A DNA stretch of 5,680 nucleotides from positions 1-5,680 of the IMG/VR virus record IMGVR_UViG_2684622669_000004, one strand, 5' to 3'. The position numbers and the translations under genes were made by a program. Below the pieces are notes generated by a model. The model had not been told where the DNA came from. It saw nothing but the letters and a program-made list of their open reading frames with translations, and made no database searches. Shown one piece after another: positions 1,270 to 1,865 of the stretch. Each line of letters opens with the position of its first letter. Within the stretch, counting starts at the first letter, position 1. Origin of the DNA: a virus. Taxonomy: Duplodnaviria; Heunggongvirae; Uroviricota; Caudoviricetes.

Positions 1270-1701
1270 ATGTTTGGAATCTTCAAAAAGAAAACCCGCA
1301 GAGCGGCAGCGGAAATTAAAAAGTTTGAGAAACGCGATCTGGCACAGGCGGTGATTAACGCTGCATACCTGGTGGCCTATGCAGATGGTGAATGCGAGGC
1401 ATCCGAGAAAGCGAAGATCGAACAGGTCTTACGTAATCAGCCTGCGTTGTCTGCGTTTACCTCGGAAATTAATGCGATTAGCGCAACTATTATCGGTCAG
1501 CTGGATACCAATTTTAAAATTGGTCGTCGTGCCGCGTTACGCGAGATTGAGGATGTGAAACACGATGCGCGTGAAGCGGAAGATGTGCTGGATGTGGCGG
1601 TGGCCATTGCGGAGGCAGACGGCGAAATTGAGCCGGAAGAGCGCAAGGTGCTGGAAGAGATTGCCGGTGTTCTGGGTCTTCGTCTGGAGAATCACCTGTG
1701 A
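1270..1701 (+). CDS. TerB-like (tellurite-resistance TerB domain) protein, 143 aa; prophage moron
   Basis: RBS AAGGAA (1256-1261) 8 nt before ATG 1270. The helical acidic protein has two ADGE-type motifs (…YLVAYADGECEASEKAKIEQVL… and …VAIAEADGEIEPEERKVLEEIAGVLGL…) typical of TerB/DjlA-N-like domains. Family call is from memory. Confidence 0.6.
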   Translation: MFGIFKKKTRRAAAEIKKFEKRDLAQAVINAAYLVAYADGECEASEKAKIEQVLRNQPALSAFTSEINAISATIIGQLDTNFKIGRRAALREIEDVKHDAREAEDVLDVAVAIAEADGEIEPEERKVLEEIAGVLGLRLENHL

Positions 1702-1865
1702 CGGTAAAACTGCGCCTGGCTGTGGCTGCACTCCTGCTGTTTCTGGTGGTGATGGTGGATTTCACCAGCAGAATCATGTCGGTGCTGGCGGATGGGGTGC
1801 TGGTCTGCGGCATTGTGGTATTGCTGTGGCCGGTGATAAAAAGAAACAGCCTGCATAATGCTTGA
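1698..1865 (+). CDS. Small hydrophobic membrane peptide (~55 aa, two predicted TM helices), translationally coupled to the TerB-like gene
   Basis: GTG 1698 overlaps the TerB stop (GTGA at 1698-1701), with GGAGA (1686-1690) 7 nt upstream. Translation (M)TVKLRLAVAALLLFLVVMVDFTSRIMSVLADGVLVCGIVVLLWPVIKRNSLHNA, stop TGA 1863-1865. It is below the length cutoff of the supplied ORF track; found by hand translation. Confidence 0.4.
   Translation: MTVKLRLAVAALLLFLVVMVDFTSRIMSVLADGVLVCGIVVLLWPVIKRNSLHNA

Follow-up and report, generated by a model that had tools for sequence, protein, structure and literature searches.

The closest described relatives of the gene pair treated here are tciA-tciB-tciC of phage P1 and terB-upf69.4-upf69.6 of phage P7, in which a TerB protein is likewise followed directly by a DUF3927 peptide. 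What is said below of P1 is drawn from its GenBank annotation and from later papers. The TerB domain is also found in the terZABCDEF operon, where TerC is a multi-pass membrane protein, and in DjlA and YebE of E. coli a TerB-like domain is held at the inner membrane face by a transmembrane segment. In lambdoid phages, the slot between Q/pR' and the esterase gene takes up cargo; relatives of the present locus carry tciAB there, often with tRNA genes just upstream, and we take it that the stxAB genes of Stx-converting phages occupy the same slot. Among RNA leaders, preQ1-III is a riboswitch with a pseudoknot between hairpin loop and flank, and the yybP-ykoY Mn2+ riboswitch controls the TerC-family gene alx.

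The window analysed here is a stretch of 5,680 nucleotides from a virus of the class Caudoviricetes (positions 1 to 5,680 of the IMG/VR record IMGVR_UViG_2684622669_000004), and the genes and transcript elements in and behind the pair are the following.

1270-1701, plus strand: tciA, ATG open reading frame of 143 aa with a TerB domain
1686-1690, plus strand: GGAGA ribosome-binding site of tciB, within the 3' end of tciA and 7 nt ahead of the GTG at 1698
1698-1865, plus strand: tciB, GTG open reading frame of 55 aa, DUF3927 peptide
1870-2056, plus strand: prophage sRNA of the STnc100/PasD type (Rfam RF02076, 116.4 bits, E=7.9e-26)
2081-2107, plus strand: intrinsic terminator at the end of the tciAB-sRNA unit, ahead of the esterase gene (terminator scan)
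2182-4053: esterase gene of the nanS-p type
4346-4552: class II holin of the P21 type (Pfam search)

The overlapping pair is tciA-tciB, and it is not new. It had been described preliminarily as a compact two-component moron, but it is already named in the record of phage P1, both genes are annotated in hundreds of E. coli genomes in RefSeq, and the pair is thus a matter of ordinary annotation, being named, present in Pfam and PHROGs and widespread in E. coli, of whose genomes a large share carry it. With the P1 and P7 proteins TciA shares 41% and 51% identity, respectively. The locus differs from that of P1 in several respects. P1 has tciC, which encodes a 35-aa single-segment peptide, whereas the list of open reading frames of the window holds no tciC-like small hydrophobic frame after 1865 and the STnc100-type RNA stands at that position. 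The pair belongs to a C1-controlled ban operon in P1 but to a predicted Q-dependent late operon in the window, and a leader motif ahead of tciA is present in the window but missing from the P1 and P7 loci according to our covariance model. Of the lambdoid cargo, the window has tciAB but no toxin. Flanking tRNA genes accompany tciAB in P1 and P7, in jumbo phages and in many prophages of E. coli, many lambdoid relatives among them, but the idea that tciAB is strictly tied to tRNA clusters was given up, as tRNA genes are missing from the window and from most other species.

The identification of TciA is secure. It matches the Pfam profile TerB (PF05099) over residues 26-138 with 59.8 bits (E=4.1e-16), well above the cut-off of 24.4, which bears out the earlier reading of the 143-aa frame as TerB-like, and it matches phrog_632 at 5e-69. 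Proteins 96-99% identical to it are annotated as TerB family or TciA. The nearest solved structure is Klebsiella TerB (2JXU, chain 2JXU_A; E=4.5e-8), with residues 14-137 of the query aligned on residues 20-144 of the chain, and the domain is thus the same as that of the terZABCDEF operon over nearly its full length. The paired acidic motifs (ADGE...E, twice) are conserved between the two; the duplicated TerB motif (D-G-x...E) is kept in TciA, and D39, E46, D117, G118 and E124 are invariant or nearly so among 11 diverse TciA sequences. The protein consists of a TerB domain standing alone, and is cytosolic. The surroundings are unlike those of the operon: terC, terD, terE and terZ are absent from the window, where the neighbours are Q, DUF3927, esterase and holin genes, no other ter genes occur in the annotated relatives of the locus, and the membrane partner would be a 55-aa hairpin instead of TerC. 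TciA also shows weak profile matches to DUF533, the family of YebE (E=4.7e-5, below cut-off), and to the N-terminal part of DjlA (E=1.4e-6, far below cut-off), a likeness that serves as a working analogy and does not make TciA a member of these families; in TciA the anchor would be a separate polypeptide, and a J domain is lacking.

The small frame behind it was correctly placed in the preliminary description, as both the sequence and the list of open reading frames agree on a hydrophobic frame of about 55 aa with its own GGAGA site and a GTG start (1698-1700) that overlaps the tciA stop (TGA, 1699-1701; together GTGA, 1698-1701). The suggestion that the frame could easily be unannotated does not hold, since the families Pfam DUF3927 and PHROG 1470 exist and tciB is annotated by PGAP (as 'DUF3927 family protein' beside 'tellurite resistance TerB family protein') and, as TciB, in phage records. 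TciB matches DUF3927 (PF13064) over residues 3-51 with 62.3 bits (E=4.3e-17; cut-off 25) and phrog_1470 over residues 1-54 (E=4e-30). Its hydropathy gives two hydrophobic stretches, approximately residues 7-20 and 26-47, in keeping with the membrane peptide proposed earlier. Basic residues flank both ends (K4 and R6; K48 and R49), and TciB is therefore probably a hairpin with both termini in the cytoplasm. DFTS, ADG and WP are conserved motifs, acidic residues are conserved in the loop and the second segment, and the length is 45-65 aa in nearly all of 62 representative DUF3927 clusters. The gene is under purifying selection, with a median pairwise dN/dS of 0.31 in 830 pairs, where synonymous sites are saturated in the distant comparisons, and over 100 loci, from phages of several types, maintain its frame; the conservation proposed as a check on the small frame is thus observed. 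That the 55-codon frame is a chance open reading frame and no gene, as its shortness, GTG start and hydrophobic low-complexity composition might suggest, we regard as already refuted by this conservation and the Pfam and PHROG matches, and as having practically no chance of being true.

The two genes are also kept together. Among 121 loci with tciA, tciB lies immediately 3' of it in 114, and the tight junctions are of the GTGA type in 88 loci and a 1-nt ATG overlap in 18. A recognisable tciB follows tciA in 26 of the 33 loci of a species-representative set, in which two further loci have a divergent two-segment peptide and one a frameshifted copy of tciB. The overlap or the gap of a few nucleotides suggests that translation of tciB is coupled to that of tciA. 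The pair is common in E. coli prophages, with intact copies persisting in many cryptic ones, and it is found in the phage-plasmids P1 and P7, in the virulent N4-like phage Pollock and in jumbo phages of Erwinia and Salmonella, so that temperate, phage-plasmid, virulent and jumbo phages all keep it. In the Pseudomonas phages Zuri and AF and in two further loci (L101 and L115), what comes after TerB is phrog_27356, a small membrane protein not homologous to TciB, with a GTGA-type overlap of 4-8 nt or a gap of a few nucleotides. Since the junction is of the same kind, the architecture of a TerB protein with a tightly coupled small membrane partner recurs, and it does so with two unrelated partner families. 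This yields a tethered-TerB model that is concrete and open to test, and the partners may be interchangeable, DUF3927 serving in enterobacterial phages and phrog_27356 in Pseudomonas phages. The genes also occur singly, tciB without tciA in phage 434 and terB without a small partner in phage PMBT3 and Vibrio phage K479. Four apparent TerB-DUF3927 fusions (P0124, P0186, P0250 and P0292) were discarded as evidence of interaction, their junctions reading as frameshifted 3' ends of tciA or as chimeras.

The first cargo behind a Q82-type late promoter and its terminator is the tciAB pair, with Q on its 5' side and the esterase gene on its 3' side. The elements upstream are listed below.

343-1032, plus strand: Q antiterminator gene of the phage-82 type (Pfam PF06323, E=1.4e-84)
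1016-1075, plus strand: region of the late promoter pR' of the 82 type, a motif common to phage 434 and an O157 prophage
1016-1021 and 1039-1044, plus strand: -35 box TTGCAA and -10 box TACATT of pR', with an inferred +1 at about 1051
1056-1064, plus strand: sigma70 pause element of pR', extended -10-like TGaTATTTT
1065-1067 and 1075, plus strand: GCC at +15 to +17 and U at +25 of the pause region, with the inferred pause at 1075
1095-1127, plus strand: intrinsic terminator tR', stem 1095-1118 followed by a T run (terminator scan)

Over 229 aa, Q shares 62% identity with the Q82-like protein of phage 434. The promoter scores under the threshold of a consensus promoter scan, and it is its layout, which agrees with the 82 pR' pause region as published (PMC5001585), that makes it a probable working late promoter. 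The terminator is conserved in the O157 prophage and in phage 434, where it is annotated as such. The earlier placement of the pair directly behind a Q-dependent late promoter is thus right in that tciA is the first open reading frame there; the terminator and a 115-nt structured leader lie in the interval. In the consensus scan no promoter appeared on the plus strand from the terminator to tciA; a weak lysogenic promoter may serve tciAB.

The unexpected element of the locus is this leader, a conserved and apparently folded RNA that is predicted to hide the ribosome-binding site of tciA and falls outside the known RNA families of Rfam. Its parts, all on the plus strand, are as follows.

1151-1272, plus strand: conserved structured 5' leader of tciA, about 115 nt (covariance model R1, 113 bits)
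1161-1168 with 1215-1222, plus strand: helix alpha (covariation)
1169-1173 with 1256-1260, plus strand: helix delta, whose 3' arm is the Shine-Dalgarno (SD) sequence AAAGG
1176-1186, plus strand: 11 consecutive G within the 5' arm of helix beta (sequence)
1182-1190 with 1243-1251, plus strand: helix beta (curated alignment)
1194-1205 with 1224-1235, plus strand: helix gamma (curated alignment)
1207-1211 with 1264-1268, plus strand: helix epsilon, pairing the spacer before the AUG

Of the cells of the curated alignment 93.7% are paired, a share that falls to 31-51% if the partner is slid, and changes on both sides are seen in 18 of the 34 pairs, compared to 6.9 +/- 1.5 in shuffles; ten divergent rows of this alignment were placed by hand because the covariance model failed to realign helix gamma of the jumbo phages, and the part of the covariation count that rests on them is biased toward structure. 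RNAalifold on a MAFFT alignment, which cannot draw crossing helices, returned helix alpha and small hairpins only. The SD is paired in helix delta in 100% of cells of the curated alignment. A hairpin of delta, beta and gamma, which pairs the SD, is the minimum free energy fold in 6 of 14 representatives, and the predicted probability that the SD is unpaired is 0.0-0.6 among the 14. Helix alpha cannot nest with this predicted fold, and the leader would therefore be a pseudoknot or a two-state switch. The window's own leader folds no better than shuffles (z = -0.17), whereas a common variant does (z = -2.27). The G run ranges from 4 to 11 in length between homologous loci. A T-to-G change in it produces a G.A mismatch in helix beta, and of 40 distinct leaders 30 have T-A at this position and 9 have G.A. 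The leader was rejected as coding sequence, as the changes in the length of the G run shift any frame and the variation is compensatory.

The only return of a search of Rfam 15 with positions 1125-1285 at E<=10 was a miRNA fragment on the opposite strand, a chance match, and in the search of the whole window at E<=1 the leader had no match. Pseudoknotted leaders that sequester a ribosome-binding site, such as preQ1-III, are likewise built of several helices, with a paired SD and a helix from loop to flank that crosses the main hairpin, and yybP-ykoY likewise stands ahead of a Ter-family gene; no Rfam model, these included, matches the tciA leader. From the alignment and the folding, the leader is predicted to be a cis-regulator that occludes the ribosome-binding site of tciA. 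Its signal might be a small ligand, a metal ion or a factor of phage or host origin, and by analogy with the Mn2+ riboswitch of alx could have to do with what the TerB domain senses.

As a whole, we lean somewhat towards explaining the locus as a lytic, leader-held module in which tciAB forms a membrane-tethered TerB. Transcription of tciAB would need read-through by Q and hence lytic induction, and the leader would hold translation of tciA down by pairing the SD in delta and the spacer before the AUG in epsilon. Ribosomes finishing tciA would then translate TciB, which would recruit or tether TciA to the cytoplasmic membrane on its inner face; that the two proteins interact is suggested by the order of their genes. 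They would thus be a split version of the membrane-anchored TerB proteins, i.e. the N-terminal part of DjlA, YebE/DUF533 and TerB with TerC. In lytic growth the complex would affect the envelope or the ion state of the infected cell, for example by excluding superinfecting phages or colicins or by stabilising the membrane until lysis, and tciAB would give the lysogen no tellurite resistance. The missing promoter of its own and the presence of the pair in virulent phages argue for a lytic role and against tellurite resistance of the lysogen. P1 tciABC lies downstream of the C1-controlled ban operators (GenBank annotation), and P1 tciA, tciB and tciC were non-essential in a CRISPRi screen (PMC10695390), so that any lytic role is dispensable in the laboratory. 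If true, a lytic membrane function of tciAB would be a general piece of phage biology.

Of the other explanations, the one that survives best is lysogenic conversion, in which tciAB would be expressed in the lysogen and give resistance to tellurite, colicins or phages in the manner of a ter operon. The TerB domain itself, the frequency of the pair in E. coli prophages and its position in what we take to be the stx slot of Stx phages are in line with such a role, as is the PHROGs category of both families ('moron, auxiliary metabolic gene and host takeover'), and ter operons have been tied to phage inhibition and colicin resistance (PMC7371120). However, the link to tellurite and phage resistance drawn in the preliminary description goes no further than homology. 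The other ter genes are absent from the window, and the authors of a report on a phage terB hold a lone terB to be inactive for tellurite resistance (PMC8421299). The defence models of PADLOC-DB 2.0 gave one weak partial match for TciA (PDC-S48, E=0.0038, 35 residues) and none for TciB, and no functional lead beyond TerB and DUF3927 came from PADLOC, NCBIfam or Pfam. The lack of a promoter between terminator and tciA in the consensus scan also speaks against expression in the lysogen, as does the retention of the pair in strictly virulent N4-like phages, in jumbo phages and in the repressor-controlled operon of P1. Altogether, we consider this explanation unlikely.

A lower probability still, small enough to make it quite improbable, is given to a toxin with its modulator, in which TciB would damage the membrane or inhibit division, TciA would be its cytosolic regulator and the repressive leader would limit the dose. 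TciB is very hydrophobic, with the acidic residues conserved in its loop and second segment, its translation is tightly coupled to tciA, leaders that sequester the ribosome-binding site are found ahead of other accessory genes as well, and 'inhibition of cell division' was named as a possibility by the P1 annotators. Against this, the pair showed no similarity to known toxin families in Pfam, NCBIfam and PADLOC, phage 434 has tciB without tciA, and many cryptic prophages retain intact copies. More doubtful again is an accessory role in lysis timing, with TciB modulating the nearby system of pinholin and SAR endolysin. The late operon of lambdoid phages has the pair a few kb ahead of the P21-type holin, and the probable two-segment topology with both ends inside would be like that of small holin and antiholin proteins, but in P1, Pollock and the jumbo phages the pair lies away from the lysis genes, and TciB has no similarity to holin families at E<=1. 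We therefore rate this role as very unlikely.

The leader is not confined to tciA. Related copies of the leader stand ahead of two other accessory genes of late operons, one antirepressor-like and located between R and Rz and the other encoding a 246-aa protein of unknown function, and a single paralogue of the leader already occurs in some 800 of the 5426 complete genomes of E. coli that the search covered. The leader may thus gate the translation of accessory genes inserted in late operons, these three included. If it is a real regulator it would be a new RNA motif and, if true, a handle on how phages dose accessory genes in a very strongly transcribed late operon. The broader proposal, that the leader is an undescribed class of phage cis-regulatory RNA and that phage TerB proteins are two-part membrane modules with interchangeable partners, is put forward tentatively, and we think it rather less probable than not.

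The leader was also considered as the PasA/PasC sRNA and rejected, as PasA is described beyond the esterase gene and beside the holin. The sRNA that does follow the pair is a full-length match to the RF02076 model, for which the gathering score is 47. The PasD/STnc100 family is reported to adjoin phage esterase genes, and TerB has been called a 'conserved neighbour' of the PasA/PasC sRNA (bioRxiv 10.64898/2026.05.13.724894).

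The 5.7-kb window belongs to a lambdoid prophage and makes up its late-regulatory and lysis region, in which a TerB-domain gene (tciA) and a small membrane-protein gene (tciB) follow the Q antiterminator gene:

5-346: rusA
343-1032, + strand: Q antiterminator (PF06323, E=1.4e-84)
1095-1127, + strand: intrinsic terminator tR' (terminator scan)
1151-1272, + strand: conserved, structured tciA leader, ~115 nt
1270-1701, + strand: tciA, TerB-domain ORF (Pfam TerB)
1698-1865, + strand: tciB, 55-codon ORF (Pfam DUF3927)
1870-2056, + strand: STnc100 prophage sRNA family (RF02076, full-length, 116 bits), immediately 3' of tciB and ahead of the esterase gene
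2081-2107, + strand: intrinsic terminator (terminator scan)
2182-4053: nanS-p type esterase (DUF1737/SASA/DUF6645)
4346-4552: P21-type class II holin
4557-5108: DUF1327 protein
after the DUF1327 gene, at the window end: lysozyme gene, start only

The preliminary description of a 143-aa TerB-like protein whose gene is overlapped by that of a tiny two-helix membrane peptide was borne out. TciA scored 59.8 bits against Pfam TerB (cut-off 24.4) and also matched the Klebsiella TerB structure 2JXU, and TciB matched DUF3927 (62.3 bits, cut-off 25) and phrog_1470 and has two hydrophobic stretches with flanking basic residues in its hydropathy profile. The GTG start of tciB (1698-1700) lies on the TGA stop of tciA (1699-1701), and tciB has its own ribosome-binding site, GGAGA at 1686-1690, 7 nt before the GTG, both as originally described. 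The idea that the small ORF could easily be unannotated did not hold: RefSeq labels it 'DUF3927 family protein' (and tciA 'tellurite resistance TerB family protein'), and phage records already use the names tciA and tciB. The pair is known, annotated and functionally uncharacterised, and we found no experimental function for it in the searchable literature. Of 5426 complete E. coli genomes, 2021 contain a match to the 1.17-kb region of the pair, and 635 cover it nearly in full. In P1-like elements the tciABC operon is a variable region, and a CRISPRi screen of P1 indicated that tciABC is non-essential (PMC10695390).

What we add here is the breadth and tightness of the linkage between TerB and a small membrane partner, which involves two partner families. 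We compared 121 loci with a TciA relative (80 IMG/VR contigs, 33 species-representative genomes, eight annotated phage/prophage records and the window), and in 114 of them a TciB-profile match starts no more than a few nucleotides from where tciA stops, the genes meeting at GTGA in 88 loci and overlapping by 1 nt at an ATG in 18. In the species set tciB was recognisable in 26 of the 33 loci, two more had a divergent two-segment peptide there, and one had a frameshifted copy. The small ORF is thus confirmed as a gene and as a partner of tciA in the genome, and the synonymous bias proposed as a check was found: the pairwise median dN/dS of tciB is 0.31, and although synonymous sites are saturated in distant pairs, the DFTS, ADG and WP motifs are kept. 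Decay of the frame is sporadic, with a W44 nonsense codon in two loci, one of which also has a broken tciA, and a frameshift in one. The TciB family is small (62 clusters at 50% identity among 1.84 billion representatives), and almost all members are 45-65 aa. The few members longer than this read as products of frameshifts or as chimeras, not as true TerB-DUF3927 fusions.

The range of the pair extends beyond temperate lambdoid phages to P1 and P7, the virulent N4-like phage Pollock with its Salmonella relatives, and 240-kb jumbo phages of Erwinia and Salmonella. As exceptions, terB has no small partner in phage PMBT3 or in a Vibrio phage, and in phage 434 tciB sits without tciA behind an unrelated membrane protein. 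There (L003 2138-3370) tciB occupies the same slot after the Q82-like gene, flanked by the genes for a 247-aa multi-pass membrane protein (phrog_1521) and for a membrane protein of 62 aa. The second partner family, phrog_27356, was seen in Pseudomonas phages Zuri and AF and in one Pseudomonas and one Paracoccus genome (L133 1143-1346; L134 1132-1353; L101 3441-3644; L115 3398-3604), where the TerB gene is followed, with a 4-8 nt overlap (GTGA in AF and L101) or a few-nt gap, by a gene for a different small membrane protein of 67-73 aa, which has a single hydrophobic segment and a conserved domain containing Cys, C..YG.QTERE...VGC. This gene carries no annotation in the phage AF record.

The region upstream of tciA fits a predicted phage-82-type late promoter (pR'). 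The window Q shares 62% identity with the phage 434 Q82-like protein, and comparison with relatives revealed a conserved TTGCAA-17 nt-TA(C/T)A(T/C)T motif overlapping the end of the Q gene. Downstream of the inferred +1 at ~1051 come an element resembling an extended -10, then GCC at +15 to +17 and U at +25, as described for 82 pR' (PMC5001585). The first ORF behind both pR' and tR' is thus tciA, in agreement with the earlier placing of the pair behind a Q-dependent late promoter. A perfect 10-bp inverted repeat, ATCGCGTACA / TGTACGCGAT (1033-1042 and 1073-1082), flanks the -10 element and sigma70 pause region and is absent from the O157 and phage 434 promoter versions.

We also add an argument for lytic-phase expression. 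A consensus scan detected no + strand promoter in the tR'-tciA interval, P1 tciAB is placed behind C1-controlled ban operators, and virulent phages keep the pair, which together suggest that tciAB is transcribed late and Q-dependently. Translation of tciB would be coupled to that of tciA. In DjlA and YebE/DUF533 a TerB-like domain is joined to a membrane anchor, and TciA resembles both in weak profile matches. By analogy, TciA and TciB most likely form a membrane-tethered TerB complex, a proposal supported by the recurrence of two unrelated small membrane partners, and such a complex would affect the infected cell's envelope or its ion state. The interpretation of the pair as a compact two-component moron was only partly right: the pair is real, but a role in tellurite resistance or defence is the weaker reading, as other ter genes are absent, PADLOC gave no meaningful match and the pair is not specific to lysogeny. 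For a lone phage terB, tellurite resistance without other ter genes was considered unlikely by the authors who reported it (PMC8421299).

The ~115 nt before the tciA start, which fall outside the positions given in the preliminary description, are more conserved than tciA itself, and in three compared loci (L110, L111 and L107) the leader is almost identical though TciA is only ~42% identical to that of the window. Five helices are predicted:

delta: CCTTT 1169-1173 / AAAGG 1256-1260, the 3' arm being the Shine-Dalgarno (SD) sequence
beta: 1182-1190 / GGCTCACCC 1243-1251
gamma: 1194-1205 / 1224-1235
alpha: CCACAGAG 1161-1168 / CTCTGTGG 1215-1222, the 3' arm in the gamma loop
epsilon: GTGAC 1207-1211 / GTCAC 1264-1268, in the spacer just before the AUG

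Together, delta, beta and gamma make a single long nested hairpin, which alpha and epsilon cross. In an alignment of 40 sequences, ten divergent rows of which were placed by hand, 93.7% of the cells pair (31-51% with slid partners), and both sides change in 18 of 34 pairs, compared to 6.9 +/- 1.5 in shuffles, none of 500 reaching 18; an uncurated MAFFT alignment gave the same direction with smaller numbers. Alpha has compensatory changes in five lineages: jumbo phages (CCGTAGAG/CTCTACGG), Buttiauxella (CCGCAGAG/TCTGCGG, with a G.U intermediate in phage CharmingMan), locus L114 (CCACAA/TTGTGG) and two paralogues. For 6 of 14 representatives the nested hairpin is predicted as the fold of lowest energy (-32 to -42 kcal/mol), alpha-constrained folds are ~2 to 16.5 kcal/mol worse, and the SD is predicted to be mostly paired. 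As modelled, the leader must be a loop-to-flank pseudoknot or alternate between two states, because the 5' arm of alpha abuts the hairpin base and its 3' arm lies in the apical loop; the ribosome-binding site would be engaged either way.

The leader occurs in lambdoid, Klebsiella and E. coli phages and, in recognisable version ahead of tciA, in the Erwinia and Salmonella jumbo phages, and the covariance model did not find it in P1, P7 or N4-like phages. No Rfam 15 family matches it, and this re-examination adds it as a candidate new RNA motif. The covariance model also picks up diverged copies, with compensatory changes in alpha, beta and gamma, ahead of two other late-operon accessory genes. 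One (48.7 bits; O157 prophage, L004 9133-9253 = L129 704-824) lies ahead of an antirepressor-like gene, itself an insertion that separates the lysozyme gene from the Rz-type 'lysis protein' gene downstream of it, and this sequence is shared by 820 of 5426 E. coli genomes, at a median of 3 copies each. The second (32.8 bits; L110 5495-5596) precedes a 246-aa protein of unknown function with no PHROG match. We interpret the leader as a putative gate on the translation of accessory genes that lie in an operon with very strong transcription. The window leader has a T-to-G change within beta, which gives a run of 11 G (1176-1186) and a G.A mismatch; run length ranges from 4 to 11 in homologous loci and the change recurs on three leader backgrounds, which could reflect slippage-prone tuning of the helix or sequencing noise.

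STnc100 is related to the PasD sRNAs of EPEC, found beside phage esterase genes, and TerB is among the conserved neighbours of PasA/PasC (2026 preprint, bioRxiv 10.64898/2026.05.13.724894). The synteny described for EPEC prophages puts PasA/PasC-type sRNAs at the esterase-holin interval, here a predicted position only, and in the window this interval (4054-4345) holds two terminator-like hairpins. Transfer RNA genes, of which there are none in the window or in most non-E. coli loci, flank tciAB in P1, P7, jumbo phages and many E. coli prophages (compared loci L005 849-1002, 2434-2509; L007 886-1354, 2947-3277; L004 4208-4457; L002 3725-3958), and JLK-2012 has the order Asn-Thr, as in P1. Phage Pollock has a group I intron (L006 2644-2996; Rfam RF00028, 101 bits) ~450 nt 3' of its tciB homologue.
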